A DNA stretch of 64,000 nucleotides from the IMG/VR virus record IMGVR_UViG_3300042516_001464, positions 3,812 to 67,811 of that record; one strand, 5' to 3'. Shown here piece after piece: positions 3,175 to 57,097 of this stretch (position 1 is the first letter of the stretch; every line of letters starts with the position of its first letter). The notes beneath the pieces are model-generated. The model searched no databases, had not been told where the DNA came from, and saw only the letters and a list, made by a program, of their open reading frames with translations. Position numbers and translations under genes: made by a program. The stretch is from a virus.

Positions 3175-4152
3175 ATGAGAATAACACTTGGAGAAGCGAG
3201 GCAACAACTTTACGCCTCAATAGTTCCATCGATTGATAACCAATCGAACATAGATCGCTTTAACTCGTATCTTAATCTTGCACAAGAAAGATTGATTAAT
3301 AGTGGAAAGTGGAACGGAACTATTCTTCCTGTTAGATTTTATTCTCCGAGTGGAATGATTACACTGCCAAGGCGATTTACTTCAGCCCTTGCTGCAAAGT
3401 GGAGCAAAGATTCCGGGAATGGAAACAACGCCACTGGTCCAATTAAGATTCGCAATGGATGGTTTACATACCTTACTCCTATCTCTGACTTGTGGACAGC
3501 TTCCTATTGGCCGAGGTATGGATATAACGAGACATTCTTTGATGACCTTGGTGATGGATTTGTTACATTTGCGAATCCAACATATGAAACATTTACTCTA
3601 AAGGTTGAGATTGAAAATGCAGCTGATGCAAATAAACAAGTTGTTATTAAAGGTAAGGACGAAAACAACAATGATGTGACAATTAATGTTGTGTTGAATA
3701 ATCCAAGCACAACTACAACTCAAGTTTTTAAGAGTATAAACTTCCTTCAAAAATCAATTACAAATGGTGCAGTCAATCTTTATGCTGTAAGTGGAGCTAA
3801 TGAGGAGCAAATCGGCGCATACGAGACAACGGAGACGACTGTGAGCTATCATCGATATGCAGTTCCAAACGAACCTACCATTGATCATCTTGATGTTCTT
3901 TGCAAGATTAGGTTTGTTCCATGCGTATATGATACTGACGAAGTTATTGTTTCTAATCTTGGCGCGTTGAAGAATATGCTTACATCTCTACGATTTGAAG
4001 ATGAGGCAGACTTAGAAAGATCAGAAATGTTTTTTATGAAAGCATTGCAACTACTAAACGGAGAGAGTCGAGAAATCCGTGGTGGTTCGCAATGGAAACT
4101 AAACATTGATAGAGCATCAATGCAATTTGAAAACCTTTGGCCGGGAAGATAA
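3175..4152 (+). CDS. Putative head-tail adaptor / tail tubular protein
   Basis: Helical N- and C-termini (LNLAQERL...ALQLLNGE) resembling podovirus adaptors; tail-module context. Confidence 0.45.
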   Translation: MRITLGEARQQLYASIVPSIDNQSNIDRFNSYLNLAQERLINSGKWNGTILPVRFYSPSGMITLPRRFTSALAAKWSKDSGNGNNATGPIKIRNGWFTYLTPISDLWTASYWPRYGYNETFFDDLGDGFVTFANPTYETFTLKVEIENAADANKQVVIKGKDENNNDVTINVVLNNPSTTTTQVFKSINFLQKSITNGAVNLYAVSGANEEQIGAYETTETTVSYHRYAVPNEPTIDHLDVLCKIRFVPCVYDTDEVIVSNLGALKNMLTSLRFEDEADLERSEMFFMKALQLLNGESREIRGGSQWKLNIDRASMQFENLWPGR

Positions 4153-10852: not shown

Positions 10853-11707
10853 ATGGCAAAGAGAAAATACAATAGGCCTCAAACAATTTATGAGGAGGAA
10901 ATGAGTCCAGAAGAAAAGTATGGAACATCAAGATTTTTTGAATCATTAATTAGGTCTGATCCAGATTCACAATCAAGTTTTGATTATTCTCAACTTGATG
11001 AGAAGTATCCAATTAAATCTATTGGAGGAAGAATGCAACTTGAAGAGCAAAGGCGCAATGAAAATCCTTTTCTTGAAGAAGACATTGCTTATAGAACAAA
11101 TATCATAAAGCAACGCGAATCAGAACTTGGGCTTAAAAAGGCTGCAAGAGATTTGGATATGTATGAATCGCAAATCAATCGCGAGGACGCAATACTTGAG
11201 CAAATTCCAGTTGCAAGGCAAAAACTATCCGATCTAGATGTTCGTGACCCTAATTTCATAAATAAGGCATACGATATTCAAGAACAGCATCCATTAGCGT
11301 TTGAGAGTGATAAATTTCAAAAGTATATCTTTCAACCAATGCTTAATCGTAATTCGCGTTTGATTAGCCGAAAGCAGGATGGAGTAATAACGCAAGAAGG
11401 GTTATCTAAAGCGATGGCAGAAATTTCAAAATATAACGAACTAATTGACGCTAGGGGCGAGGGGGTTGGTGCTTCAACGGAAGAGGATCGTTATCTTGGG
11501 TATTTGCAAAACCAAATTGACCAATTCTACGCGCAGAGGGGAATGGAGAATCCTAATGCAACTATGCCAATGCAAACACAACAAATGAACCGACCAGAAT
11601 CATTTTCATTTAACACTCCAGAAGAAGCGGAAGAGGCTAAAAGAAATAATATCTTGAAAGTAGGAGATAAAGTAATTATAGGTGGGAAGACATACATTAC
11701 TGAATAA
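10853..11707 (+). CDS. Putative internal virion protein
   Basis: Coiled-coil; C-terminal LKVGDKVIIGGKTY motif; coupled to the giant gene. Confidence 0.5.
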   Translation: MAKRKYNRPQTIYEEEMSPEEKYGTSRFFESLIRSDPDSQSSFDYSQLDEKYPIKSIGGRMQLEEQRRNENPFLEEDIAYRTNIIKQRESELGLKKAARDLDMYESQINREDAILEQIPVARQKLSDLDVRDPNFINKAYDIQEQHPLAFESDKFQKYIFQPMLNRNSRLISRKQDGVITQEGLSKAMAEISKYNELIDARGEGVGASTEEDRYLGYLQNQIDQFYAQRGMENPNATMPMQTQQMNRPESFSFNTPEEAEEAKRNNILKVGDKVIIGGKTYITE

Positions 11708-14700
11708 TGCCTTTCCGACTTTTAGATGAAGAGCCTAAAAAACTCGAAACAGAAATTACGCCTCAACAAACGCCAAGGATTGGGAGCTTTCGTCTTTTGG
11801 AAGACGAGCCAGCATTTGCTCAATCATCGCAACCTGCATACAAGTATGATGCTTCTCGTTTTCGCCCCAAGGGATTAACATCTACAAAATCAACGCAAGA
11901 AGCCCCGGAAGAACAAAGTATCTTCCGTCAAGTAGCAGATATCCCACTTGGCATTGCCCGTGGCGGTGTGACTGGTATCAAGATGATGACTGATATTCTT
12001 GGTGCTGATAATCCAGTATCAAAGTCATTAGCTGGAGTTGAGGGATACATGGCAGATTTGATGTCCGCTCAAGCAAAGGAAGATCAACAAGAGATTTCTC
12101 GCATTATGAAAGATGCCGAGGACAAGGGATTCGGCGAGCAGGTTAAGGCTGGTATTAAAGCGTTCAGCATTGCTCCAGTTGATATCATGTCTCAAGCGTT
12201 GGGAACAATGGCTCCTGTGCTTGCAACTGGTCTTGCTGGAAGCGCAGCAAAACTTGGAGCATTGGGGATTAGAGCGGTTCAAACTGGTGTTGGTGCTGGC
12301 ATGGGTGCTGGCATGATTAAAGGCGAGATTTACAATGAGGTTAAAAACGAACTCATTAATTCTGGAACTCCAGAGGAGCTTGCCGAGAAAGCTGCTGTTG
12401 AAGCGCAATCTTACGGAGGAAAGAACCTAGATCAGATTTTACTTGGAGCAGGACTGGGTGCGGCATCTACATTGGGAGCAGAGCAAATCCTTACGAGGCT
12501 TATAACAAAACAAGGCGTTGCTCCATCTGCTGGTATTATATCTCGCACATTAAAGGGAGGTTTTACAGAAGCTATTCCAGAAGGCGTTCAAGCTGCACAG
12601 GAACAATTGGCAAAGAACGTTGCATTGCAGAGAGAGGGATTTGATGTTGACCCATCCCGTGGTGTTGTTGCTGCCGCTACGATGGAAGCTATTGCTGGCG
12701 CACCATTGGGTGGTCTTGCTGGAGCTGTTGAGCAGCCAGCTAAAGTTAAGACTCTTGAAGAGGAGAAATTTGAGCAGACCAATGAGATTGCAAGGAATGC
12801 TGCTGAAAATGGCGCACCACTTACTGCATCCGCACTTCAAGACAAAGCCGCCGCTAATCTAAATCAAGATGAGCTTGCAAGAAAACTTGAAGAAGAACTT
12901 TCGATTTCTGCCGTTAAACCATCTGTAGCCGCACCTATAGCTATTCCTACAAAAGATGAGTATGTCGCAAGGTATTCGGCTATTGCACAGGCAGCACCAG
13001 AAGAACTTACAAGAGCAGAGCAATCGTTCACAAACGAACTCACTACTGCCGATACAGAAGAGAAACGCATCAATGCACAGAACGCATTAGACGCAATTAA
13101 AGAAGTAAAAGCAGCAGCCGCTGCGCAACCACCAACAACATATGCCACTCAAGAAATCATCCAGCAACAAGGCGTTCGTGAAGAACCTCAAGACAGAACT
13201 CAAGTTGGGGCGACCACAGAAACAGGCGTTAGCGATAGCATACTCGACGCAACGAGAAGCAAAGAAGAAAGGCAAGTAGCCAGAGACATCGTAAGCGAAC
13301 TGCAAGCTGTAGCGAACAATACCGCCACAGGCGAGCAGATTGCCCGTCTATCGATGGAAGGACTCGTAGATGTCCGTAGAGGCCAAGCCATCATTAACGA
13401 AGACGGTGAGGGCATTCTCGCGCAAGCACAAGCCCCATTGCCAAAGCTCACGCCAGAAGCAAGGGCTGCTGAAGTTGAAACTGCCCCAGCTACTCCGACT
13501 CCATCAGAACTTATCATTGGAGAAAAACCGCAAGTTTCTCCGATAGTAGGCGAGCAAGTTGCAGAGGCTACTCCAGCAGAACCAACTGTTAAGGAATCCT
13601 TGACAGTTCAGCCTGCACAAGCTGCACCCGTAGCTGCACCAGTAGAACAAGTAGTCACGCCACCAGTAGAGGTTGCACCAACCATTGCGGAGGCCGCTCC
13701 AGTTGAGCCGATTGCTCTTGCACCAGAAACTGCTGCTGTTGATAGATACACAGAGCTATCTCGCAATCCAAAAATCGGAACAGCTAAAGAACGAAAGGCT
13801 TTAGAACCAACTGTAGCAACAACAACATTCAAAACAAGTCGTGGCAGCACTTATTATATTTTGCCAGATGGGAAGATACGCCGAGACAAATACTCTGGAA
13901 CAACAAGTTACTCTGACCAGATTGCTTTTGTTTCTCCCGAAAACGCAGAAAAAATAAAAGAGATTCGGAATGAATATGAAGAAGGCAAGAATACTTCGGT
14001 TGAAATTACTCCAGAAGTAATCCGTTTTCGATTTAACGAAAAGATCGCAGAAGTTCCAATTGCTTCACAGTCACCGCAAGAAGGGCTTTCTCCCTTTGAA
14101 CTATCTGGTGGAAGATACCCGCATTTAGGTGATCCGGTAGTATCTCCCGCACCAGTCACCGAGCAAGCTGCACCAGCAGAAGCTCCCGCGCCAGAGGGTG
14201 CGCCTGCCCCACAAGTTGAACAAGAAATTGAAGTAGGTGATGAAGCGTCTGTTAATCTCGCTGGAAGAAATGAAACTGTAACCATTGCTCGTATAGAAGA
14301 CATCAACGGGGTTCCAACGGCATACTTTGATTATTTTGGATACAAGTCTCGACCATTAGCTGAAATGCAATTGGTTAAAAAATCAAAACAAAACATAGCA
14401 AAGGCTGAAAGAAAAGCAAAAGAGGCAAAGGCATCTCAAATAGAAATTACTCCACCTAAACCAGAAGACTTTTTTTCAAATGAAGAAATAGCAAGTCTTG
14501 TATCTGGAAAAGCTCCTGATGGATGGAAGTCCGACACATCTACACGCGATGATTTTTTTCTAACAGATACAAATGGGAAGCGTTGGAGTTTTAAGCCACA
14601 GTATGAAAATGGTGAAATTACATCAATTCTTATGCGTGCTGAAGGGCAAGTTACAGGCGTTACAATTACTAAAGCGCCCACTCCAGCAGTATCTGAAGCT

Positions 14701-17700
14701 CCAACTCAGCCAGAGGGCATCGCAGTAGGCAACCGCATCAAGTTAGGCAAGAGTCCACAGACATACACCATTGAAGAAGTAATTCCGCAGACAGCAACAG
14801 AGAGAGATTTGGGCGAGCAGTATTACTCTGTGAAGAACGAACGCACTGGAGAGGTGCAAGTAGTAGAGGCAATGGACATGAAGAAAGTTGGTGGGAAGAG
14901 AGCGCGGAAGATGGCAATTTCAGATGGAACGATTTCATACAATCAACTCCCAAGCAACATCCAGAAAGAAGCCGATTTTGTTCCTAACAAAGAATCAACA
15001 TTGTGGAAGTTGGAGCAAGTATCCGTTGAAGACTTGATGGAGAATAGCCCCGCTGGAATGACTGGAGATATTTCTGAAATTGAAGGCTATGATATAGATT
15101 CATTAATTAAAAGCATTAGGAAAGATGGAGTCAAGCAACCCATCGTGATGGTTCGCAATGCAGATGGATCAATTGATATTGAAGGTAATCATCGAGTATA
15201 TGCTGCGTATGAAGCTGGGCTTGATACAATCCCGGCTTATGTCCTACAAAAACAAGGCATTCTTAAACAGGCAGTCGAAGAGAAGATTTCTAAAACAGCA
15301 TTGATTGATAAAGATGGAAGCATCATTAGCGCACCAGACAAAAATCACGCAATGCTAATGGAGGAGAGCCAGTTTAATTTGGATGCTGGCGAGTATCCTC
15401 CAATGGAGAACTATGGGTTTGTTACAAACTTTGGAAGATTCGTTGGTCAGAAGGAAGCGCAGGAGATCGCTCGTAATTCGCAGCAAGTTATAGGAGGGCA
15501 GCAAATCAGCGGAGAGCTTGTTACTGCAATCAACGAAGAAGAGAGTGCGAATATTTTGAGGCTCAATGTCCAAGGTGCTTCTGGAAACAAATTCAATGAA
15601 GCAGGGTTCAAGAGATTCCCCGGCATTGCTGTTACGAGAACTAATTCTGAAACACTAACATCGCATCCGCTATACAATGCTGCCAAACGATTCAACAATG
15701 TAGAGGCTGCTAAAATCATTGTTGATGAATTTGTAGACGATCAAATGGTGTTTGATGTGTTTACCAACATTGATCCAAACAAGCCAGCGTATATTGTGCC
15801 TGTTCTTAAAGGTGAAGCTGATTCAATGAATATGCTTCCAGTCGCATTGGCTGAAAAACTTTCCAATGCAAGCGGAGTCCCCGTGTGGGGTAACTTGATT
15901 CAAGCAACTTCAGAGCAAAGCACAGGCGCTGGGGTGAATGAAAAGACAGAGATATCAAGGCAATTCATGGGTGAAGCTCCTCCAGCCGGATCGCAGATAA
16001 TTATCGTTGATGACTATCTTGCTACTGGCAGAACAATTGCATCGCTTGAAAACATGACTGGAACAGCATCTTCTGTTGCGACAATAGCTTCTGGAAGATA
16101 CGGAAATCAATATGGCTTAACTACTCAACGAGCAGAAAAACTCCTTGAGAAGGCAGGCATTACAAGAGAGAGATTTTATGAAATATATGGACTACAACCA
16201 GAACAAGCAATCACAGGAATCGAGGCCCAGGCTTACATCCTCAATGGGGCCGCTGGCGAAGGTGGACTCACAAGTAGATTCCCTGTCGAAAAAATTTCAC
16301 CAAGCAATGAAGGAATTAAAAACATTGCGAATGTCCCAGAATCAGTAGTTCTATTTGCTGGTGGTGGGCTTACAGAGCTTGGACTTGTTGGGATTGTAAG
16401 AAATGGATATGTTGTTGAGGCCAATCAACGGATAGCTGAATTCTACGAGGAAGCTCATGGCGTTCCTGTAATTCAAGACTATGTCCAGAATGTAAAGTTT
16501 TATGGTATTAATGGAGGTCATCTACACGCATCCCCCGTTTGCAAAAACTTCTCTACTGCTAAAAACAAACAACAAGTTACAGAGCAAGATAAGATTATTG
16601 ACAGAGAAGCTGCTGGCGCTGTAGCTCAAGCAATTAGGGACATACAACCAAATACTGTTTCTATTGAAAATGTAACTGGATACAAAGATACAGAATCATA
16701 CAATTCCATTATCTCTGCGCTTGAGGAGAATGGTTATATTTATGATGCGAATTTTTACAACGCAAATGATTTTGGAGCGCCAACATCTCGCAAGCGTTTG
16801 ATTGTTAGAGCAGTTAAAAAGGGTGGAGTTCTTCCAGAAATACGCAAGAAAAAGAAAAGAATGTCTTGGTATGATGCCGTTAAGGACATCGTAAATGATT
16901 TGCCGGATCACGATATCAATGCCGCGAGGTATCCAGCCAGAATGATGTCCTACTTGGCTGCAAAGGGAATTGATATTTATAATGTTGATCAACCGCTTTT
17001 GATTAGCGGAACTGATGGCAAAACATTCCGCAATGCAGATCAGCCAGCAATGACATTCTTGGCTACTCCAAGGGCGCTTAATATTATTGCTCTTCCTGGT
17101 GGCATCATTAAGAAGGTCACAGCACGGGCAATGGCAAGAATGACTGGCGTTCCAGATTCATTCCCGCTACCAGCAGATGAGGCTCTTGCAAAAACTATTA
17201 TTGGAAACGGAATTCCTCCTGCGCTTACAAGATCGGTAATTGGCGACTTGATTCAGAAGAATGAAAAGCCAGAAGTTGCCGTTCCAAAAGTAGCAGCTGA
17301 AAAGAATCAATATACATTTGATGCAGCTGAAAAAGAAGTTACAAATTTCTTCGGTGAAATGCCGGAAGGAATTGTTATTGTAAACAATACAACCGATCCA
17401 GACTTGCAATTTAAAGCCGGATACGATGTGAAGACAGGTGAAATTATTATTAACCTTGCATACATCGATAAGAAGGAAAATATCGGAGACATTATCTCTC
17501 ACGAACTTGGGCATTATATCTTTGGTGATCCGCAATTCCGGGCAGACTTCCAAGAGTTTTGGGACATGATGACTCCAGAAGAACAGGCTGAAGCTGATAG
17601 GATTATCAACCAATTTTACAACAACGAGACTAACGAAACCAAAATTGAAGAGAAACAGATTCGCGCATTCATGCAGTTGATCTCTGACTCTAAAGCTCAA

Positions 17701-20700
17701 CCACAATGGAAGCAATTGCTAGATAGCATCAAGCGTTGGATGAACAAATACTTTGGAACTAAATTCCAAACAACAGATAGGACTGCATTGGCTATCCTTT
17801 CTACTGCAATGAATCGCTTTGCAAGCGGGGAGCGAATCATCCGTGAGATTGATTCTGGCGTGCTGAAGATGGCAGCAGAGCCAAAGCGTGAGAAGGTAGC
17901 AGGCAAAGAGCGTGGAGAGATCATCACCACTCCAGAAGGGATTATTAAGCAAACGCAAGAGGTGCTACGAAACAAGTTCTTTGATGGAACGGAAGTTTCA
18001 GATAATGCAACTCAACAAGCGTGGAACTATATAGAGCAGTTGTTGGATATTAAATCCGGCGCGGCCAATGCGCTTGCAGGACAGATTAACGATGTAGTTG
18101 ATCAAGAGACGAATTCTGACTCCAGAATGGGGGCAAGTTTGTTTTCTGTATCTTTGGCTAACTATGCCGCGAAGCTCGCTGCTCAAGGTGACATGACAAT
18201 GCTTCCATACATTATCCGCAGGATCAATCGTATGCCAGTTGATAACCTTGCTGGGGGCAGAAGCGAAGCTGGTGAAGCGTTGAGAGCTGCAAGGGAATAT
18301 CAAATCGATGGATTCAATACGCTCAAGACAGAAGACAAGGCGAAGGTTGAAAGAACAGCAGCTACATTGTTTGGAACTGATAAGCCAAGCAAAGATCAAG
18401 TAAAGGTTGTTGAAGATGCTATTAAGGCTTCCGAGGATGAAACAATTGGTAATCCAGAGGATGTTGCCGCTGAAATTGAGAAGGTTGAGAATAGAACTGG
18501 CAGAAGGGTTGTTGACAAGGTCGAAGGTAAGATCAAGGAATCAACAGAACCAAAAAAAGAAGAGCTTCTTATTTCATTTGAGAATTTAGATGCAGACAAA
18601 AAGATCAAAGGCATCACGCTTAAATACAGCCCACAGAAAGTAAATGTAGTCAAAAACATTCAGAACCTCATCATCGGCAAGATGGTTGATTATCGAAAAG
18701 CACTTGTTAATCAAGGCGCAGGTGGACTTGAATCTACATTCTGGCAGACGATGAGCAGTCTGGAAAACAAGCCCGGACCATTGGGTGAGATTGACCAGGC
18801 TCAAAACAACGAGCTTGCAAGAATTGTTAAGAACACGCTTATCAAACTTGGGCTTCAAGGTGAGCCTAAGAATACAAAAATGACGGACATTGAGAAGGTT
18901 GCGTCCATCTTGAACGAGAATAAGTTGAGTGATGAGAAGAGACTTGAAGCTGATCAACGGATTGTTCAAGAGATTGAGCGTAGAAGGCAGAGTGAACTTG
19001 CATCCGGCTCAAGCCCAGAAGCTGTAAATGCAAAATACGATGTCATTCTCGATGCTTGGAATGAAGCGATGAGCAGGCAGTTGAATATGCCGATTAGCGA
19101 TAATATGCTTCAGCGTTTGCTGAAATCGGAAATAAAACAACGCAATACTCAGATTAGCGAACTCATCAATGAGAATGACGGAAGAGTTGTTGAGGAAGTT
19201 AAGAACGACATTGTTGATTCTATTATTCGCAGAATCTATGGTGTTTCTAAAGAGTCCGAAACAGGAATTGAGATGGATGAGGATTACAGCAATCTTCAGT
19301 CATATCTCAAGCAGACGATCAACAATATGTATGCAACAGCTATCCAGAAGAAGAATGCTGCATACGCAAAGCGTCAAGCTGAGAGAAGCCTCAAAAATAA
19401 TGTTGATGCACAAGCGCAATCAATCATCAATCAACTCTCAACGGAGTTAAGTGATACCCCATCATTCTCGCCGCAAATAGAAAACAAGGTTAAGGTTATT
19501 GTTCAACAAGACTTGAGGCAAAATCCAAACATGGGACGTAAGCAACCATGGACAAGCCAGCTTACAGCAAAGCTCATTGACGCTGGTGTGGACGAGACAC
19601 AGGCTCAAACAATCTCTGAACTAACCTGGAGACAGCATGAGATTAAGAAGATGGATCGTGATCTTAAGGAACTCAAGACAGCAGCTGAAAAAGGATCGCT
19701 TGCCGTTATCATTGATCGAATCAAAACAACGCCATTAGAGAAGCAGCAAGAGCCTAACTGGATGCAAGGCGTGATTCGTGAATACTTGGTTGAAGCCGGA
19801 CTATCTGATAAAGCTGCTGAAACTGCCGCGAAACTATACGAAAGCGTAATCTCTGAAAAGTTCGCAGAAGCGAAACAAAAAGCATTTGAAACAACACTTA
19901 ATAAATCCGCTCCGTGGCAAAACTATCTTTCAAGAAATAGCCGACTTGGCAAGGACGCATTGAAGAGAATTCAAGACGCGATTAGAACTGGAGTTCTTGA
20001 TCCAACGCAAAATGTCGAAAGCATTATTGCAAGAGAGAATGGGTGGTCTGGTTTTACTAAAGAACAATTCCAACGCATTGTTCAATTGGACAATGTTATA
20101 TCCAGTCCAGATACAGACCAAGTTACAAAAGCGGAGGCAATGGACGAGCTTAACAAGATCATCGTTAAGGCGAAGATTCCAGTAAGATTCAAGGATGCCA
20201 TCGGCGCATATTATGTTGGTCAGGCGCTTATGGGTATTCCAACGCTAACCGTTAACATTGCGTCACCTATTGGGTTCTCTGTCAGAAATCTTATCACAGA
20301 TATCGGACGCTATGCGTTTACTGAACCATCGAGAATTCCAATGGCATTTGAAACATTCTTGGATAGTATGAAGTCTTGGTATAACCAAAGCTCATACGCA
20401 TTCAGAAACCAAATCTACATGAATGATGTGGTTGAGTATTTGAATGGTCAGAATGTTCTTCGTGAATTGTTTGACAAAGGAAAAGCTCAATGGGCTAAAG
20501 GTGAGTATGCGAACGGCATGGCAAATATGCTTGTTGGCATGACGCAAATTACTGGTCGAGTTCTGTCGGCTTTGGATCAAGGCGCTATCTCTATGTTGGA
20601 GAATCAAAACATTACGAGATATGCGATGGAGGCAATGAAGCAAAGAAACATTCCGCAATCAAAGCGGAAGGAGATTGCCAACATGATCTTTGATACACGC

Positions 20701-22200
20701 AGAAGGACATATGCAGAAAATGTTGCTGCTGGCATGGAGAAAGATCGCGCTGGTGTGCTGGCTGATTTGGCAGTCAGAAGCGAGATTATCAATGCGCTTT
20801 CTCCAGAAGGAATTGATTTCAAGGATGTATTGGATTCTGCTATTAACGACTCATTGCAATCTGTTGGTAGAAACAAGACAATTAATGTTGATGGAATTGT
20901 TAAGGAGAATGAAAGGCTATCTGATGCGGGTGTGCTGTCTTATCTTCCAATTGAATTCCTCCAAAAGATAGCATCCGGCGCGGCAAGTAGTGGGCCATTG
21001 ATGCAGGTATTCTCCAAGATGGTTTATGGATTTGCTCTTGTCCCAGCCAGAGTATTCCATACAACAGCCTGGTATTCTCCATATGGATTCATTCGACTTG
21101 GTATTGATGCTTATAAAAAGAATAAGGGCGAAGATTCGCCATATGCGATGAGTTTGCAAACAGACCTGCAATACAAGCAAAGGCTTACAGACGCTATCGC
21201 CGGATCAATTGTCATGCTTGGACTCGCCGCTCTTGCAAGTGGATCAGCTGATGATGACGAAGAGAAGAAGTTTAAGATTGTTATTACAGGTAATGGTCCA
21301 AGTTATTCAGCAGACAGGCAGTTCTTTGATGCGTGGCATAAAAAGTATAAGCCATACAGCATTAATATTGTTATGGGCGATACCGTTATTCCAATCAACA
21401 TTGGACGAGGCGGCGAGGCATTGTTCTTCCCAATTATGCTTGCTGGCGCATTGGACGATTGGGGAATTAAAAAGAAACTTAATCTTACCAAAAAAGAACC
21501 AGAAGACTTGAACCTCGCTGTGGAAGTGTTGGGGTCATCATTCTTTGCCTTGGCTCAAAGAGGGCCATATGCTGCGTTTACCAAACCATTGTTTGATGCA
21601 TCTAAAGAAGGCAAGATTACAGAAGAACTTGTTAGCCAAGCCGGGTTCTTTGGTAAAACATTTGTTCCGATATTAGGTTCATCTCTTTCAAGGAATATTT
21701 CTGACTTTATTAACGATCCAATTGATAGGTCTTCATTGGAGGGAGCTATCTACGCTAATACACCTATTGTTGGTCCGTGGATGGGCGCTAAAGCTCTTAA
21801 TGCATTGGGGCAACCAATTAGGGCGGACGATTGGGGAGATAGGCTATTTAAGCTCGGAGTGCCAGTTGTATTCTCATTCCCTAAAAATACTCCAGAGAAT
21901 GAACTCAATGAGCTTATCCTTCAGAAAGGAAGTGGACCATCAATCCCAACAAGAGCCAATGCGCAGAAACGATTTGGTGATGTTCTGACAGATAAAGAGT
22001 TTGAAACATATGTGCGTGAATATGGACGAGTTGTGTCTGACAAGATGTTCAAGAACAGGAAACAACTTGAAAAGATGTCTGTCAAAGATTACGATGATGA
22101 ACTTCAAAGATATGTCACGGGATACTCAATCGATGGAATTAAAATTACTGGGGCATCAGATATGGCAGTTCGTGCTGTAAGAAGGATGCGAGGCGAATGA
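11707..22200 (+). CDS. Giant polyvalent internal virion protein (ParB-like, PRTase, C5 DNA MTase, zincin domains)
   Basis: EGNHRVYAA (ParB-like); IIIVDDYLATGRT (PRTase); LFAGGG/SPVC/ENV/RKRL/GNGIPP (C5-MTase); SHELGH (HExxH). Confidence 0.85.
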   Translation: MPFRLLDEEPKKLETEITPQQTPRIGSFRLLEDEPAFAQSSQPAYKYDASRFRPKGLTSTKSTQEAPEEQSIFRQVADIPLGIARGGVTGIKMMTDILGADNPVSKSLAGVEGYMADLMSAQAKEDQQEISRIMKDAEDKGFGEQVKAGIKAFSIAPVDIMSQALGTMAPVLATGLAGSAAKLGALGIRAVQTGVGAGMGAGMIKGEIYNEVKNELINSGTPEELAEKAAVEAQSYGGKNLDQILLGAGLGAASTLGAEQILTRLITKQGVAPSAGIISRTLKGGFTEAIPEGVQAAQEQLAKNVALQREGFDVDPSRGVVAAATMEAIAGAPLGGLAGAVEQPAKVKTLEEEKFEQTNEIARNAAENGAPLTASALQDKAAANLNQDELARKLEEELSISAVKPSVAAPIAIPTKDEYVARYSAIAQAAPEELTRAEQSFTNELTTADTEEKRINAQNALDAIKEVKAAAAAQPPTTYATQEIIQQQGVREEPQDRTQVGATTETGVSDSILDATRSKEERQVARDIVSELQAVANNTATGEQIARLSMEGLVDVRRGQAIINEDGEGILAQAQAPLPKLTPEARAAEVETAPATPTPSELIIGEKPQVSPIVGEQVAEATPAEPTVKESLTVQPAQAAPVAAPVEQVVTPPVEVAPTIAEAAPVEPIALAPETAAVDRYTELSRNPKIGTAKERKALEPTVATTTFKTSRGSTYYILPDGKIRRDKYSGTTSYSDQIAFVSPENAEKIKEIRNEYEEGKNTSVEITPEVIRFRFNEKIAEVPIASQSPQEGLSPFELSGGRYPHLGDPVVSPAPVTEQAAPAEAPAPEGAPAPQVEQEIEVGDEASVNLAGRNETVTIARIEDINGVPTAYFDYFGYKSRPLAEMQLVKKSKQNIAKAERKAKEAKASQIEITPPKPEDFFSNEEIASLVSGKAPDGWKSDTSTRDDFFLTDTNGKRWSFKPQYENGEITSILMRAEGQVTGVTITKAPTPAVSEAPTQPEGIAVGNRIKLGKSPQTYTIEEVIPQTATERDLGEQYYSVKNERTGEVQVVEAMDMKKVGGKRARKMAISDGTISYNQLPSNIQKEADFVPNKESTLWKLEQVSVEDLMENSPAGMTGDISEIEGYDIDSLIKSIRKDGVKQPIVMVRNADGSIDIEGNHRVYAAYEAGLDTIPAYVLQKQGILKQAVEEKISKTALIDKDGSIISAPDKNHAMLMEESQFNLDAGEYPPMENYGFVTNFGRFVGQKEAQEIARNSQQVIGGQQISGELVTAINEEESANILRLNVQGASGNKFNEAGFKRFPGIAVTRTNSETLTSHPLYNAAKRFNNVEAAKIIVDEFVDDQMVFDVFTNIDPNKPAYIVPVLKGEADSMNMLPVALAEKLSNASGVPVWGNLIQATSEQSTGAGVNEKTEISRQFMGEAPPAGSQIIIVDDYLATGRTIASLENMTGTASSVATIASGRYGNQYGLTTQRAEKLLEKAGITRERFYEIYGLQPEQAITGIEAQAYILNGAAGEGGLTSRFPVEKISPSNEGIKNIANVPESVVLFAGGGLTELGLVGIVRNGYVVEANQRIAEFYEEAHGVPVIQDYVQNVKFYGINGGHLHASPVCKNFSTAKNKQQVTEQDKIIDREAAGAVAQAIRDIQPNTVSIENVTGYKDTESYNSIISALEENGYIYDANFYNANDFGAPTSRKRLIVRAVKKGGVLPEIRKKKKRMSWYDAVKDIVNDLPDHDINAARYPARMMSYLAAKGIDIYNVDQPLLISGTDGKTFRNADQPAMTFLATPRALNIIALPGGIIKKVTARAMARMTGVPDSFPLPADEALAKTIIGNGIPPALTRSVIGDLIQKNEKPEVAVPKVAAEKNQYTFDAAEKEVTNFFGEMPEGIVIVNNTTDPDLQFKAGYDVKTGEIIINLAYIDKKENIGDIISHELGHYIFGDPQFRADFQEFWDMMTPEEQAEADRIINQFYNNETNETKIEEKQIRAFMQLISDSKAQPQWKQLLDSIKRWMNKYFGTKFQTTDRTALAILSTAMNRFASGERIIREIDSGVLKMAAEPKREKVAGKERGEIITTPEGIIKQTQEVLRNKFFDGTEVSDNATQQAWNYIEQLLDIKSGAANALAGQINDVVDQETNSDSRMGASLFSVSLANYAAKLAAQGDMTMLPYIIRRINRMPVDNLAGGRSEAGEALRAAREYQIDGFNTLKTEDKAKVERTAATLFGTDKPSKDQVKVVEDAIKASEDETIGNPEDVAAEIEKVENRTGRRVVDKVEGKIKESTEPKKEELLISFENLDADKKIKGITLKYSPQKVNVVKNIQNLIIGKMVDYRKALVNQGAGGLESTFWQTMSSLENKPGPLGEIDQAQNNELARIVKNTLIKLGLQGEPKNTKMTDIEKVASILNENKLSDEKRLEADQRIVQEIERRRQSELASGSSPEAVNAKYDVILDAWNEAMSRQLNMPISDNMLQRLLKSEIKQRNTQISELINENDGRVVEEVKNDIVDSIIRRIYGVSKESETGIEMDEDYSNLQSYLKQTINNMYATAIQKKNAAYAKRQAERSLKNNVDAQAQSIINQLSTELSDTPSFSPQIENKVKVIVQQDLRQNPNMGRKQPWTSQLTAKLIDAGVDETQAQTISELTWRQHEIKKMDRDLKELKTAAEKGSLAVIIDRIKTTPLEKQQEPNWMQGVIREYLVEAGLSDKAAETAAKLYESVISEKFAEAKQKAFETTLNKSAPWQNYLSRNSRLGKDALKRIQDAIRTGVLDPTQNVESIIARENGWSGFTKEQFQRIVQLDNVISSPDTDQVTKAEAMDELNKIIVKAKIPVRFKDAIGAYYVGQALMGIPTLTVNIASPIGFSVRNLITDIGRYAFTEPSRIPMAFETFLDSMKSWYNQSSYAFRNQIYMNDVVEYLNGQNVLRELFDKGKAQWAKGEYANGMANMLVGMTQITGRVLSALDQGAISMLENQNITRYAMEAMKQRNIPQSKRKEIANMIFDTRRRTYAENVAAGMEKDRAGVLADLAVRSEIINALSPEGIDFKDVLDSAINDSLQSVGRNKTINVDGIVKENERLSDAGVLSYLPIEFLQKIASGAASSGPLMQVFSKMVYGFALVPARVFHTTAWYSPYGFIRLGIDAYKKNKGEDSPYAMSLQTDLQYKQRLTDAIAGSIVMLGLAALASGSADDDEEKKFKIVITGNGPSYSADRQFFDAWHKKYKPYSINIVMGDTVIPINIGRGGEALFFPIMLAGALDDWGIKKKLNLTKKEPEDLNLAVEVLGSSFFALAQRGPYAAFTKPLFDASKEGKITEELVSQAGFFGKTFVPILGSSLSRNISDFINDPIDRSSLEGAIYANTPIVGPWMGAKALNALGQPIRADDWGDRLFKLGVPVVFSFPKNTPENELNELILQKGSGPSIPTRANAQKRFGDVLTDKEFETYVREYGRVVSDKMFKNRKQLEKMSVKDYDDELQRYVTGYSIDGIKITGASDMAVRAVRRMRGE

Positions 22201-40690: not shown

Positions 40691-41095
40691 TTATTTTATT
40701 GTTTCCCAATAGTCAATTGGATAATTAATTTCTATTTCTGTTTTCTCGTTGTCGAATCCTTTGACTTTTTCTTGTTCGACTTGGAGCTTGATTGTCCATG
40801 GGTTGTCTTCAGGTAGGAGTTTAGCGTGTCGCAAGCCATCGAGTAGATTCTTTGTAGAGGCTGCTGCGTTGTCTGGATCAAGGCATCTGACCCGGAACAG
40901 AGTGAAGCGGACTTCAATGCGTCCAGTAGCGCGTCCCAAGCTAACTTCTTTTCTTTGTATTGAACTGCCCAGTGCTGGCGCATGGTCTTGTTTAGCGATG
41001 GTGTTCTGTATAGGACTGTGAGCTTTAGTTGCATTGGCTTGGATAAATGATTTAGATGCGTTTGGAAATGCGAGTAGGAGTTCTTTCTCTGTCAT
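40691..41095 (-). CDS. RusA-like Holliday junction resolvase, catalytic frame
   Basis: RCLDPDNAAASTKNLLDGLRHAKLLPEDN matches the RusA DxDN..K..D..D pattern. Confidence 0.75.
   Translation of the reverse strand: MTEKELLLAFPNASKSFIQANATKAHSPIQNTIAKQDHAPALGSSIQRKEVSLGRATGRIEVRFTLFRVRCLDPDNAAASTKNLLDGLRHAKLLPEDNPWTIKLQVEQEKVKGFDNEKTEIEINYPIDYWETIK
40732..41034 (-). CDS. Overlapping-frame ORF carrying a RusA-like N-terminal segment
   Basis: MQLKLTVLYRTPSLNKTMRQHW resembles the RusA-family N-terminal PS(L/V)N motif. Confidence 0.5.
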   Translation of the reverse strand: MQLKLTVLYRTPSLNKTMRQHWAVQYKEKKLAWDALLDALKSASLCSGSDALIQTTQQPLQRIYSMACDTLNSYLKTTHGQSSSKSNKKKSKDSTTRKQK

Positions 41096-41379
41096 AGAAT
41101 ATATCCATTTTCTTTTGCCCACTTGGGATTGTCATGCACCTCGCAATGGCATCTGCGGCATAGCGATAAGAATGTATCCTTGTTGCATAGATTCTTTCCT
41201 CGCTTCGCCATGTGATGGATGTCATCAGCGCCGAAACCGCAAATAGCACAGAATGGGTTCAATGCGAAGTGTTCCTTCTTTGCTTGCTGGTATAGCGTAA
41301 GCTCTTTTGCGTGTCGTTTAGAAACCTTATTCATAGGTTTCTTTGATGTTAGTCTACTTCTTCTTTTTAGCAGGGGCAT
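41092..41379 (-). CDS. Small HNH / Zn-finger nuclease
   Basis: CAICG..DIHH...NL...LCRRCHCEVH. Confidence 0.75.
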   Translation of the reverse strand: MPLLKRRSRLTSKKPMNKVSKRHAKELTLYQQAKKEHFALNPFCAICGFGADDIHHMAKRGKNLCNKDTFLSLCRRCHCEVHDNPKWAKENGYIL

Positions 41380-43199: not shown

Positions 43200-43622
43200 A
43201 TGAGTTGCATACCAGACATTCAAACCACAAACGAAATGTATAATCTATATCTAAAAGGATATAGTATTTCTCAAGTTGGAAAAGCGTTTCAAGTATCAAG
43301 GCAAACCGTATTCCAGAGATTTAAAAGAGCGGGAATGGAACTTCGATCAAAAGCGCTTTTGCCATTCATGGTTTTTAATGGGAAAAAATATACATTAAGA
43401 AATAATGGATATTTAGCCTGCACAGGTGGAGTTCGCTCTTCAATGCATCGCGATGTTTGGTGTTTTCACAATGGGGAAATACCAGAAAATTATGACATTC
43501 ATCACATCAATGGAAACAAAACAGACAATCGTTTAGAGAATCTACAAATTTTACCTAAATCAGAGCATACAAAACTGCACGGATTTAGGGGAAACCAACA
43601 CACAAAAAATAGAAACAAATGA
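43200..43622 (+). CDS. HNH homing endonuclease with an N-terminal HTH
   Basis: YSISQVGKAFQVSRQTV; MHRDVW...IHHINGNKTDNRLENL...EHTKLH. Confidence 0.85.
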   Translation: MSCIPDIQTTNEMYNLYLKGYSISQVGKAFQVSRQTVFQRFKRAGMELRSKALLPFMVFNGKKYTLRNNGYLACTGGVRSSMHRDVWCFHNGEIPENYDIHHINGNKTDNRLENLQILPKSEHTKLHGFRGNQHTKNRNK

Positions 43623-45913
43623 AACCATGCACAATAATAATACCATCGTCCCTTACATCAGTCTTTGTTCCGGCTATGAAGGCATCGGAATTGGACTCCA
43701 CCGCTGTATCCGAAATCTTCGCTGCATCTCTTACTGCGAGAGGGAATCATTCGCCATCGCAAACTTGGTTGCGAAAATGGAAAAAGGATTACTGGACTCA
43801 GCTCCTGTTTTCACAGATGTCACAAATTTCCCATGGGGAGACTTCACTCCATACATGGCTAAAGGAATTTTGTCCTTTGGATGGCCGTGTCAACCAGTCT
43901 CAAGCGCAGGAAAGCGAAAAGCAACAGAAGATGAGCGATGGTTATTCGACATCATCGCAGATGGAATTTCAATTATGCAACCCGGAATGCTCTTCGCAGA
44001 AAATGTCGAAGGACTCTTATCAGCAAAAATGCCAGACGGATCAAGCGTCTTCGGACACTGCATCGAGAGATTGGAGAAGCTACATTATAAAGTTGAGGCA
44101 GGAATATTCAGTGCGAGCGAAACAGGCGCTCCGCACCAACGCAAAAGAATCTTTATCCTGGCCTACCGCGAGGAGCAGGGATTGGAAGGACTCAGGGAAC
44201 TTGAGTCAAACTTCCTATGGAATGACATTGGGCAGGATGGCGCAGCAGAATGCGAATTGGCCTACGCCAGCGGTGATGGATACAACGGGAGGCAGCTACA
44301 AGACGGAATGGGTAGATGGAAGGGCGGTCAGCTACCACAATCACAAAGAGGAGAATCCGGTAGCTTACGGGGCCAAACTTTCGGATGCAGTGGCGAATTG
44401 GCCTACAGCGAGAACATCGGATTGCAAGAATCCATCAATACAGAGAATGAAAGTTGGATCGGATGGTGGAAACAAAATCCAGCTGCGGGAAGCAGTAGCG
44501 AAGGAGGAGATGAGTTGTTCCAATACGGAGGAATTAGTGTGGTTAACCCCAACGACAACACAAATACAGAGGCGGGATATGCAGAAGCGGATAGACTATC
44601 GGGAGAGCATAGGCCGGAAGTATGTGCCGGGTTCATTGGAGGAACAGATGCAGCATCACTCAAACGAACCAGTGAATTGGCCGACACCTACAACAGCGGA
44701 AGCTGGGAAGATATCAAACCAGCCGAATTACGGACAGATATGCTTGAGCAATCATCCGGCAATTGTTGGAACTCCCAATCGTCCGAAGGGGATCAAAGAT
44801 GGCCTTCTCGCCCAGGACAAACACAATACGCATGGGAACCACCCAGAACTATTGGAAAAATGGAAAATGGTTCCTGGTTGGGGCGACAAATATCAAGTCA
44901 GCAATCACGGAAGAATGCAGTCCAAGGCGAGTGGGGATTGGAGAGAGATGACCTTAACAATCAAGGACACGGGATATCTGAATGCGAGCTTGAGGCACGA
45001 AGGAAAACAGAAAAAAGTAACGATCCACATTCTGGTTGCGATGCTGTTTCTTGGGGAAAGGCCAAGTGGATTGGTGATAAATCACATAGACGGCAACAAG
45101 TTGAACAACTGCATTTGGAATCTGGAATATGTGACAGCAGCAGAGAACAACCGCCATGCTCAAATGATGGGTTTGAATTGCACGAAAGGAGAATCCAATC
45201 CAATGGCGAAGCTCAATACAGACCAGGTAGAGGAGATACTACAATCAACGGAATCGCAGTTAGTAATAGCGAAGCGGATGAATGTATGCCAACAAACCAT
45301 ATCGTTGATTCGTTCTGGAAAAAGGTGGAAAGGTTTGAAGCAAGAGTCATGGCCGACACCAACGATGCAGGACGGCAAGCAGGGAGGGATAACTCCATCT
45401 CAGATGGTGGAAGGAGCTGGTCACACGGGACTGCTTCACATTGCAGCAATAAAGCAAGAGCAATGGAGGACACCATCTGTAGCGGAAGCAAAGAATCAAA
45501 ATACATCAACACAAGTTTATCTTCAGAACCAAGTCGGAGCTACTCCGAAACAATGGGCGACTCCTCAAGCGAGCGACCACGTGGAGGGACGCAGGACGGA
45601 CTTGGACAGCAATCAGAAATGTTTGGGGAGAGACATGAAGAAGTGGGCGACTCCGAGTGCGTTCGACTTCAAGGATGGGGAGAGCAGGGAACAATGGGAG
45701 AAGAGAGCTGCATTCCAAGCGGAGAAGGGCGTGAGTCTTCAACTTCCGCTCAAGAGCCAATCGATACAGGAGGCGGGAACGATGAGTCCCAGTTCAGCAA
45801 AATTGAATGCGAGATGGGTCGAAACTCTCATGTCGCTTCCAATGGGATGGGTATGCCCGTCATGTCCAGCCTCTGTGATTCAGAACTGGAAGAAATTTAT
45901 GAGTGGATGGTGA
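43619..45913 (+). CDS. C5 methyltransferase beta frame (WPTP repeats, motif IX-like) with an embedded NUMOD4-HNH endonuclease
   Basis: Nine W(P/L/R/A)T(P/A) repeats; LNARWVETLMSLPMGW; YQVSNHGR...HIDGNKLNN...ENNRH. Confidence 0.75.
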   Translation: MKPCTIIIPSSLTSVFVPAMKASELDSTAVSEIFAASLTARGNHSPSQTWLRKWKKDYWTQLLFSQMSQISHGETSLHTWLKEFCPLDGRVNQSQAQESEKQQKMSDGYSTSSQMEFQLCNPECSSQKMSKDSYQQKCQTDQASSDTASRDWRSYIIKLRQEYSVRAKQALRTNAKESLSWPTARSRDWKDSGNLSQTSYGMTLGRMAQQNANWPTPAVMDTTGGSYKTEWVDGRAVSYHNHKEENPVAYGAKLSDAVANWPTARTSDCKNPSIQRMKVGSDGGNKIQLREAVAKEEMSCSNTEELVWLTPTTTQIQRRDMQKRIDYRESIGRKYVPGSLEEQMQHHSNEPVNWPTPTTAEAGKISNQPNYGQICLSNHPAIVGTPNRPKGIKDGLLAQDKHNTHGNHPELLEKWKMVPGWGDKYQVSNHGRMQSKASGDWREMTLTIKDTGYLNASLRHEGKQKKVTIHILVAMLFLGERPSGLVINHIDGNKLNNCIWNLEYVTAAENNRHAQMMGLNCTKGESNPMAKLNTDQVEEILQSTESQLVIAKRMNVCQQTISLIRSGKRWKGLKQESWPTPTMQDGKQGGITPSQMVEGAGHTGLLHIAAIKQEQWRTPSVAEAKNQNTSTQVYLQNQVGATPKQWATPQASDHVEGRRTDLDSNQKCLGRDMKKWATPSAFDFKDGESREQWEKRAAFQAEKGVSLQLPLKSQSIQEAGTMSPSSAKLNARWVETLMSLPMGWVCPSCPASVIQNWKKFMSGW

Positions 45914-46014
45914 AGTGTGAGAATCGCACGGATGAATTACGCTTGCTGGGTAATGGCGTGGTTCCGGCAACAGCAACGAAAGCATTCATAACTTTATTCA
46001 ACAAACTCAAATGA
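43627..46014 (+). CDS. C5 cytosine DNA methyltransferase, alpha frame (motifs I, IV, VI, VIII, X)
   Basis: SLCSGYEG, GWPCQPVS, AENVEGL, APHQRKRIFI and C-terminal LRLLGNGVVP. Confidence 0.85.
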   Translation: MHNNNTIVPYISLCSGYEGIGIGLHRCIRNLRCISYCERESFAIANLVAKMEKGLLDSAPVFTDVTNFPWGDFTPYMAKGILSFGWPCQPVSSAGKRKATEDERWLFDIIADGISIMQPGMLFAENVEGLLSAKMPDGSSVFGHCIERLEKLHYKVEAGIFSASETGAPHQRKRIFILAYREEQGLEGLRELESNFLWNDIGQDGAAECELAYASGDGYNGRQLQDGMGRWKGGQLPQSQRGESGSLRGQTFGCSGELAYSENIGLQESINTENESWIGWWKQNPAAGSSSEGGDELFQYGGISVVNPNDNTNTEAGYAEADRLSGEHRPEVCAGFIGGTDAASLKRTSELADTYNSGSWEDIKPAELRTDMLEQSSGNCWNSQSSEGDQRWPSRPGQTQYAWEPPRTIGKMENGSWLGRQISSQQSRKNAVQGEWGLERDDLNNQGHGISECELEARRKTEKSNDPHSGCDAVSWGKAKWIGDKSHRRQQVEQLHLESGICDSSREQPPCSNDGFELHERRIQSNGEAQYRPGRGDTTINGIAVSNSEADECMPTNHIVDSFWKKVERFEARVMADTNDAGRQAGRDNSISDGGRSWSHGTASHCSNKARAMEDTICSGSKESKYINTSLSSEPSRSYSETMGDSSSERPRGGTQDGLGQQSEMFGERHEEVGDSECVRLQGWGEQGTMGEESCIPSGEGRESSTSAQEPIDTGGGNDESQFSKIECEMGRNSHVASNGMGMPVMSSLCDSELEEIYEWMVKCENRTDELRLLGNGVVPATATKAFITLFNKLK
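44858..45340 (+). mobile_element. NUMOD4-HNH-HTH homing endonuclease inserted in frame in the beta ORF
   Basis: WKMVPGWGDKYQVSNHGR, HILVAMLFLG, INHIDGNKLNN, GESNPMAKL...TISLIRSGKRW. Confidence 0.75.
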
Positions 46015-57023: not shown

Positions 57024-57097
57024 TACCCTCGGCTGGGATCGAACCAGCAACCATCGAATTAGAAGTACGATACTCTATCCTATTGAGCTACGAGGGT
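57024..57097 (-). tRNA. tRNA-Arg (UCU), no encoded CCA
   Basis: Cloverleaf: acceptor ACCCTCG/CGAGGGT, D arm GCTC/GAGT, anticodon loop CT-TCT-AA, T arm GCTGG-TTCGATC-CCAGC. Confidence 0.9.

Follow-up and report, generated by a model that had tools for sequence, protein, structure and literature searches.

Selection alternates between two nested reading frames in a widespread family of RusA-like resolvase genes

The window analyzed here, a 64,000-nucleotide stretch of the IMG/VR virus record IMGVR_UViG_3300042516_001464 (positions 3,812 to 67,811), carries on its minus strand a RusA-like resolvase gene in which purifying selection passes from one reading frame to a second and back again. Two open reading frames (ORFs) make up this gene. 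ORF B (41095..40691; 134 amino acids plus stop, with its ATG at 41095 and its stop at 40691) comprises an N-terminal peptide, an unconstrained “shadow” linker, and the RusA-like catalytic core with the stretch CLDPDNAAASTKNLLDGLRHAKLLPEDN. ORF A (41034..40732; 100 amino acids plus stop, with its ATG at 41034) begins with MQLKLTVLYRTPSLNKTMRQHW, lies +1 relative to B, and is wholly nested within it; the overlap is 303 nt, and the step from A to B is −1. This layout bears out the initial annotation of the locus, which had described two overlapping minus-strand frames that are both open for ∼300 nt. Our favored reading, to which we assign a probability of about one-half, is that the two nested ORFs give two chains that form one RusA-like resolvase, similar to the methyltransferase M.EcoHK31I.

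Frame-specific selection is apparent in the close clade of the gene, for which 15 IMG/VR loci were found. Both frames are present in all 14 relatives that cover the whole gene. Twelve of the 15 clade sequences are distinct, and these were used to compute the ratio of nonsynonymous to synonymous differences per site (pN/pS) for each segment by the Nei-Gojobori method. The variable columns among the 12 sequences number 7, 1, and 15 at B codon positions 1, 2, and 3 over gene nt 1–60, shift to 24, 6, and 5 over nt 61–183, where B position 1 is the wobble position of A, and return to 13, 4, and 27 over nt 184–402. In the 5′ segment, pN/pS is 0.154 for B (nt 1–60) versus 2.28 for A (nt 5–61), in the middle segment 1.92 for B (nt 61–171) versus 0.081 for A (nt 62–172), and in the 3′ segment 0.249 for B (nt 172–402) versus 0.907 for A (nt 173–361). 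From the variable columns and the segment pN/pS values together, the selected frame therefore follows the order B, A, B. Purifying selection on the frame A segment is strong. Indeed, A residues 9–29 (YRTPSLNKTMRQHWAVQYKEK) are invariant in 15/15 clade sequences, while frame B varies there at nearly every residue. In a sister clade around locus L026, 5/5 variable columns of the A segment likewise fall on the A wobble position.

These values divide the gene into coding and shadow segments, all on the minus strand. The B-frame N-terminal segment (41095..41036, gene nt 1–60) encodes MTEKELLLAFPNASKSFIQA in frame B; the initial annotation had taken the N terminus of B to be merely unrelated, whereas the low pN/pS identifies it as a conserved coding segment. 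The constrained frame A segment (41034..40924, A residues 1–37) would provide strand β1, the TPSLN loop, and the HW helix α1. The selected frame then changes from A to B at gene nt 170–174 (40926..40922), the boundaries being set by CTG/TTG at nt 170, which is synonymous in A, and GGA/GGG at nt 174, which is synonymous in B. The frame B catalytic core follows (40924..40694, B residues 58–134; GRIEVRF..LDPDN..K..D..ED..). The B-frame reading of the A segment constitutes the shadow linker (41035..40925, B residues about 21–57), and the A-frame reading of the core constitutes a shadow tail (40923..40735, A residues 38–100).

The two halves of the gene also differ in their synonymous divergence. 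Among the 12 distinct clade sequences, synonymous differences per synonymous site (pS) amount to 0.18 in the 3′ half (nt 172–402) versus 0.43–0.47 in the 5′ half (nt 1–172), and the low value persists beyond the stop of A. A differing recombination history of the two halves and a dual-coding constraint are equally likely causes of the low 3′ pS.

The same arrangement recurs throughout a large environmental family. When the core (B residues 58–134) was searched with phmmer against 1.84 billion representatives, 577 matches were obtained at an expect value (E) ≤1e-3, 84 of them at E ≤1e-10. Among 150 listed representatives, the core of every B-type protein is preceded by the sequence ..P[ND]P[KE]P[QK]R[DH]QAPALG.., which is the shadow of a +1-frame peptide, M-K-[LI]-x-L-T-V-x-Y-R-T-P-S-L-N-V-T-K-R-Q-H-W-x-x-Q-x-K-E-K-x-x-A-[FW]-x-A-L. 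In none of the B-type proteins among these 150 does the PSLN..HW motif stand in frame with the core, and the only proteins flagged in this motif check were P0017 and P0021, both of them frame A calls. The distant DNA consisted of one Chthoniobacteraceae metagenome-assembled genome and the IMG/VR contigs L017–L029, and the layout was seen in L016–L029; the related-locus search was made with a closer 16-sequence alignment (A2) and yielded one genome locus only. Over the A segment, the mean pairwise amino acid identity of 11 diverse loci is 0.73 in frame A, 0.36 in frame B, and 0.34 in the third frame, C; the corresponding values for the core are 0.69 (B), 0.39 (A), and 0.35 (C). The shadow linker is unconstrained in sequence, with an identity like that of the non-coding frame C, yet it is free of stops.

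A metagenome scan contributed 64 further loci, 62 of which were usable for a strict motif; this motif was found in frame A in 48/62. Inspection by eye of 13 of the 14 misses revealed 10 variant motifs in frame A, one wrong core pick, and two single-frame loci of the L030 type. A looser motif classifies as split 69/73 loci (61 distinct) drawn from viral, genome, and metagenome collections; of the other four, one is a wrong pick, two have insufficient upstream sequence, and one carries His in place of Tyr. Nowhere among the surveyed family loci are the two parts fused in frame. The N-terminal segment lies in the frame of the core in 0/69 split loci, and the single-frame layout is confined to distant loci of the L030 type (L101 and L103 were inspected). 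Because the layout is conserved in every relative examined, we consider it a real design.

Public protein collections contain both ORFs as separate gene calls. A search of public metagenome proteins with ORF B found 20 proteins at E ≤0.01 among 29 candidates, 15 being 134-residue forms with 81–97% identity. Gene calls of A-only ORFs exist as P0169–P0176. A word-based search with a consensus-like A segment returned eight matches, all of them A-only ORF calls with shadow tails, and a search with residues 1–40 of frame A from the window returned only P0017 and P0021, odd joins that each stem from a single contig. A tblastn search of both frames against 50,697 phage records gave no match.

The probability that the split is an artefact, either a single-base assembly error, as the initial annotation had considered, or a pseudogene broken by an indel, is close to nil. 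The stretch is contained in 20 DNA runs from 18 lake and freshwater metagenome studies, with no RNA run among those listed, and Logan contigs from four runs of four studies (two of which may be the source of the window DNA) contain no indel; their four substitutions all fall on the wobble position of the inferred coding frame. Moreover, the frames are identical in 15/15 clade members and in the 69/73 loci from unrelated samples, and purifying selection on each part is strong. That some assemblies do contain indels is evident from single-contig calls with the frames fused at unusual points: in P0017 and P0127, frame A runs into frame B at the DPDN motif or shortly before it (in P0017 the motif is lost), P0021 has the B N terminus continuing in frame into A, and a further odd call, P0001 (206 amino acids), repeats the core in tandem. 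These four proteins are probably assembly indels or rare variants, and none of them restores the canonical junction.

That frame B holds the catalytic core of a RusA-like resolvase, as initially annotated, is supported by PHROG RusA-like families (phrog_1682, E 5.6e-7 over residues 38–123; phrog_34, E 4.4e-6). A six-frame search of the genome with phrog_1682 matched frame B only (E 3.9e-8). Profile searches proposed for each frame gave a divided result: PHROG assigns B to RusA-like proteins, whereas Pfam matches neither frame at E ≤10, and a PHROG scan of 26 A-ORFs found no RusA family. Within the family, Pfam RusA matches 2/78 members (best E 0.0019). Residues Asp-73, Asp-75, Asn-76, Lys-82, Asp-86, and Asp-97 are invariant in the 78 family sequences, and the aspartates among them are presumably equivalent to the catalytic aspartates of Escherichia coli RusA. 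When the 78-sequence B alignment (A1) was compared by hhalign with the protein of the single-frame relative L030, B residues 53–123 aligned with L030 residues 52–116 (97.8% probability, E 1.3e-12). The L030 protein passes the Pfam RusA model (PF05866; 23.0 bits against a cut-off of 22.8) and matches Gordonia phage proteins annotated as RusA-like resolvases (for example, those of Ruthy, Lucky10, and Denise); a related-locus search with it returned L030 itself only.

For comparison with frame A, we used a canonical RusA-like alignment of eight sequences built from the records just named. The frame A profile (A residues 2–31) falls on canonical residues 2–33 with an hhalign score of 19.8 (E 0.0019), pairing QLKLTVLYRTPS--LNKTMRQHW.. 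with THTITIPTRRPIMLANDQRRWHW.., and in a column-shuffle control 0/200 shuffled profiles reach this score (mean 9.7, standard deviation 2.1, maximum 19.6). A script-made join of A and B aligns with the canonical proteins over residues 1–81 on 1–97 and scores 61.5, whereas controls align over the core only (52.9 for the core alone, 54.4 for the natural B ORF, and 53.6 for a join with reversed A). The resemblance of frame A to the RusA N terminus, as initially described, is supported by this alignment. We infer that frame A encodes the RusA N terminus, homologous to the canonical strand-loop-helix, with a match that is weak in absolute terms.

Structure predictions were made for each ORF with AlphaFold2 (AF2). 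The model of ORF A has a helix at residues 16–46, with a block-mean predicted local distance difference test score (pLDDT) of 89–90 for residues 21–40. The model of ORF B (pLDDT 87) has helices at residues 3–9 and 15–23 (block-mean pLDDT 89–90), coil over residues 24–59, and then the strand-helix-strand-strand core. In a complex prediction, the core and the A peptide scored 0.52 versus 0.01 for the best of three controls, with runs agreeing in at least 93% of contacts and a partner pLDDT of at least 75. This result lends weak support to an association; the mark used for such predictions is reached by 58/80 solved complexes and 2/110 mismatched pairs, and scores of 0.60 or below that reach it come from only 7 of the 80 solved complexes and from both mismatched pairs.

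These comparisons bear on a rival explanation, in which ORF B alone would be the resolvase, its own N-terminal peptide would replace the missing elements, and A would be a separate overprinted gene (for a regulator or an inhibitor, for instance) with only a resemblance to the RusA N terminus. B forms a complete ORF whose start is coupled and whose conserved N-terminal peptide is predicted by AF2 to form the two confident helices, the A segment has no significant Pfam or PHROG match, and hhalign of the frame A alignment (A3) against the single L030 sequence is insignificant (0.2% probability). A protein atlas search with the A peptide gave no usable match. However, the FP[NRH][AG]S-type motif of the B N terminus is found in only 21/61 distinct family loci, whereas the A segment is found in all of them, and B lacks sequence constraint where β1–α1 should be. 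A Foldseek search of the B-only model against PDB found no RusA fold (best E 0.074, nothing at E ≤0.001), and the A1 profile found no RusA among PDB sequences and one chance match (E 0.44). Because the A profile is collinear with canonical residues 2–33 above all 200 shuffles and the complex prediction weakly favors an association of A with the core, we consider it improbable that B acts alone.

Both ORFs have starts of their own. A B start lies upstream of the A segment in 61/61 distinct loci (ATG in 53). The A start is an ATG exactly 8 codons before the invariant Tyr in 36/59 distinct loci and within 7–12 codons of it in 49/59; GTG or TTG takes its place in 8, and 2 loci lack a start. Both frames also remain open where the other one is selected. 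B is open across the A segment in 58/58 distinct loci; for 11/11 diverse loci with B open over this segment, the per-locus chance under genome codon usage ranges from 0.019 to 0.73, and the product of the 11 chances is ∼8e-10 when shared ancestry is ignored. In 58/58 distinct loci (L001 stands outside this count), A has no stop within the first 45 codons of the core, versus 15.8 expected under synonymous-codon permutation, and in the close clade it is open to codon 100 in 14/15 members.

In the reading that we favor, ORF B would be translated from the ATG that is coupled to the upstream gene, giving a chain of the N-terminal peptide, the unconstrained linker, and a core of β2-α2-β3-β4 with the D-x-D-N..K..D..D acidic site. 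ORF A would be translated from the conserved internal ATG in the +1 frame, and its first ∼37 residues would supply the missing β1, PSLN loop, and α1, followed by an unconstrained tail. The A and B chains would then join non-covalently into a complete RusA-like unit. Translation of both ORFs, assembly of the chains, and junction cleavage are predicted here from sequence. Two separate, complementing chains fit the data because both ORFs have starts, stay open where their amino acid sequence is free, and are without frameshift signals; that the C5-methyltransferase of the same phage shares the M.EcoHK31I layout further contributes to our estimate.

The initial annotation had left the choice between two-chain overprinting and a programmed frameshift. 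In the latter case, translation would start at the A ATG (41034), slip by −1 near nt 170–174 (40926–40922), and produce a single RusA-like chain of ∼114 residues, with the B-start product and the unshifted A product as by-products or isoforms. The constraint on A indeed ends 1–2 codons from the onset of that on B, in the −1 direction, and family-wide the switch lies between ..A[FW]xAL of A and V-R-F of B. The spacing from the invariant Tyr to this Val is nearly fixed (29 codons in 52/61 distinct loci, 33 in 7, and 28 in 2), as for a structural loop. Furthermore, canonical single-chain RusA-like proteins align with the script-made join over its whole length, many members have an AGGAG-like stretch, derived from the conserved K-E-K, ∼21–24 nt upstream of V-R-F, and in the absence of a natural in-frame fusion, a shift would have to be maintained.

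The junction itself, however, lacks the hallmarks of such a shift. The distinct sequences compared have neither an X XXY YYZ heptamer nor a homopolymer in common at the switch, where the codons of frame A vary from member to member (GCG TTA CTG TCC, GCA CTC GCG TCC, GCA TTA TCG TAC, and others). RNAalifold with 13 sequences, covering −15 to +120 of the junction and nested pairing (pseudoknots being outside the test), predicted 0 conserved pairs. The slip site initially proposed, TAC AAA GAA AAG AAG (40945–40959), finds no support as the frame junction, with A-type substitutions running 6–8 codons past it, the A-frame residues that follow it (A[FW]xAL) being preserved throughout the family despite synonymous changes, and the switch lying ∼20 nt downstream; an A_AAG tetramer is missing in 4/11 distinct distant sequences (L019, L021, L024, and L025). 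A frameshift alone would also leave unexplained why B is open with an upstream start in 61/61 loci, why its N-terminal peptide is under purifying selection, and why A is open over the core in 58/58. Two-chain overprinting therefore appears to fit the sequence data better, and a programmed frameshift is a less probable but serious alternative. If the fusion were made by frameshifting, it would represent a conserved −1 shift without a recognizable slippery site, which would be equally notable for the recoding field.

Other routes between the frames were considered and rejected. A tRNA with a four-base anticodon could act as a shift agent, and the tRNA scan of the window found one ordinary tRNA-Arg (TCT) only (57024–57097, minus strand). 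Transcriptional slippage was rejected because the A-runs near the KEKK codons vary between members.

In a double recoding event, translation from the B ATG would pass into A by a +1 shift near nt 55–62 and return by a −1 shift at nt 170–174, yielding a single chain of N-terminal peptide, β1–α1, and core. The selected frame truly runs B, A, B, the methyltransferase described below shows the same order of X, X+1, X, and the public protein P0021 has the B N terminus joined to A. P0021 represents one contig, however, and may carry an assembly indel; neither junction has a recognizable +1 or −1 shift site, and the conserved A ATG is placed exactly at β1. The part of B upstream of A is variable, its motif is missing in 40/61 loci, and the stop-free state of both frames would be left unexplained. 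In addition, the sister clade (L026–L029 and L090–L093) has ∼30 extra codons, with frame A stops, that separate the B N-terminal motif from the start of A. We accordingly regard double recoding as very unlikely. In the same sister clade, a decayed copy of the A start region adjoins the B N-terminal motif, a sign that this region may have undergone duplication or displacement.

Several points weigh against two separate chains. When the codons of the segment itself are permuted, the openness of B becomes unremarkable (58 observed versus 43.0 expected); this contrast is small because the codons of the segment already avoid T at the risky wobble positions. The two-chain reading does not account for the stop-free state of the A tail of ∼60 residues, and L001 truncates this tail at codon 74. 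The tight Tyr-to-Val spacing would be expected equally from a covalent α1–β2 loop. A Shine-Dalgarno-like motif precedes the A start in just 6/57 loci, although GGAG, GAGG, or AGGA at −20 to −4 is found for only 9/35 long ORFs of the window, many leaders being AT-rich, which suggests that the host makes little use of Shine-Dalgarno sequences. The A segment alone has no Pfam or PHROG RusA match, and its hhalign E is just 0.0019. The complex prediction is weak, and halves of a split gene can pass it via their likeness to solved folds. Finally, translation of either ORF is deduced from the conservation pattern.

The window comes from a virus genome of 67,811 bp that has direct terminal repeats and is rated 100% complete. 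Here the resolvase gene adjoins an HNH-like gene within a replication and recombination module. This upstream ORF (41379..41092, minus strand, 95 amino acids) is HNH/DUF968-like: it matches Pfam DUF968 with E 6.3e-6 and 26.8 bits, under the cut-off of 27.8, and PHROG HNH endonuclease families with a best E of 9.6e-7. Its stop overlaps the start of B, with the B ATG and the upstream TGA sharing ATGA, and this overlap is kept in 15/15 clade members. The upstream ORF and ORF A lie in the same frame, separated in the window by the TGA and 19 sense codons only. Read-through from the HNH ORF into A was rejected because a further frame A stop intervenes between the upstream ORF and the A ATG in 8/15 clade members.

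The initial annotation had also proposed that frame splitting recurs in a methyltransferase gene of this phage, and the frame topology of the two loci does agree. On the plus strand, window positions 43619–46014 contain two nested ORFs in different frames, open over 764 and 795 codons. ORF 43627–46014 includes the N-terminal half of a C5-methylase (Pfam E 1.2e-27, profile positions 4–168 of 324) and ends in a C-terminal stretch that we take to be motif X-like. ORF 43619–45913, in the +1 frame, has repeated WPTP modules and a NUMOD4 plus HNH_3 insertion, and it presumably carries a motif IX-like stretch. The frame order is X, X+1, X, as at the resolvase locus, and a shorter relative (L108 785–1926) also has both frames open, over 371 and 379 codons. 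Judged by its sequence, the locus resembles a two-chain methylase of the M.EcoHK31I type carrying an HNH insertion. The window also contains a complete C5 DNA_methylase domain (16351–17253, profile positions 6–323 of 324, E 1.2e-26) within a 3497-residue ORF (11707–22200, plus strand).

Taken together, the whole widespread family of RusA-like proteins (the 577 representative clusters at E ≤1e-3) may be obligatorily frame-partitioned, with products that assemble and with the same design in the C5-methyltransferase of the phage; we put forward this extension tentatively, at slightly under even odds. If the two-chain reading holds, we know of no earlier resolvase with its fold divided between two overlapping reading frames. 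A search of the full-text literature, with supplementary files outside its scope, did not turn up any account of a RusA-like resolvase that is frame-split or frameshifted. In the PRFect preprint (PMC10274946), “RusA/RuvC” is listed among the frameshifts predicted for actinophage genomes, with a citation of Sharples and Lloyd 1991 only.

Current gene annotation misreads this large environmental family. The public family records seen contain either the B ORF with ∼36 shadow residues or the A ORF with ∼60, and because they include shadow sequence, family profiles, structure predictions, and function calls are partly based on the wrong frame. If the two-chain reading is true, annotation takes frame-split enzymes for single ORFs with a meaningless middle. 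M.EcoHK31I, the one experimentally proven case that we found, would then become an example of a recurring design, and overprinting would be a general, overlooked way in which phages split single-domain enzymes.

The combination of a RusA-like resolvase with the nested two-chain design of M.EcoHK31I is a partly supported reading, and the comparison with known systems shows both likeness and difference. According to parts of two reports on M.EcoHK31I, its β chain, with motif IX, is encoded wholly in another frame inside the α gene (PMC2836561), the α chain comprises motifs I–VIII, motif X, and the target recognition domain, and both chains are needed (PMC2836561; PMC3404938). As in M.EcoHK31I, one enzyme fold is spread over two polypeptides, one of which is nested in an alternate frame with an internal start. 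In contrast to M.EcoHK31I, the resolvase belongs to a different enzyme family, both ORFs span nearly the whole gene, each with a long unconstrained part, and the need for both chains is predicted rather than established by experiment. In λ Rz/Rz1, one gene lies within the other in the +1 frame and both products belong to a single complex as subunits, as stated in parts of two reports (PMC5295617; PMC6139136). Gene A is embedded in gene B in the same manner, whereas the membrane-spanning complex of Rz and Rz1 consists of unrelated proteins rather than pieces of one ancestral fold.

Genes with a −1 frameshift, such as dnaX, orfA/orfB of the IS3 family, and G/GT of the phage tail chaperones, use a slippery heptamer, often together with a Shine-Dalgarno-like element and a downstream structure. 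The resolvase gene resembles them in that its downstream part lies in the −1 frame and a fusion would restore the canonical protein, and it differs from them in lacking a shared heptamer or conserved structure and in having a downstream frame that is open with its own start far upstream. Compared with RusA (PF05866), the core retains the D-x-D-N..K..D..D pattern, and the A segment matches the strand, the P-x-x-(L/A)N loop, and the HW helix. Unlike canonical RusA-like proteins, which consist of one chain encoded in one frame, every member examined has its N-terminal third in the +1 frame; the connection from α1 to β2 is ∼18 residues shorter, the B chain bears an extra N-terminal peptide, and the ORFs of the window fall below the Pfam RusA cut-off.

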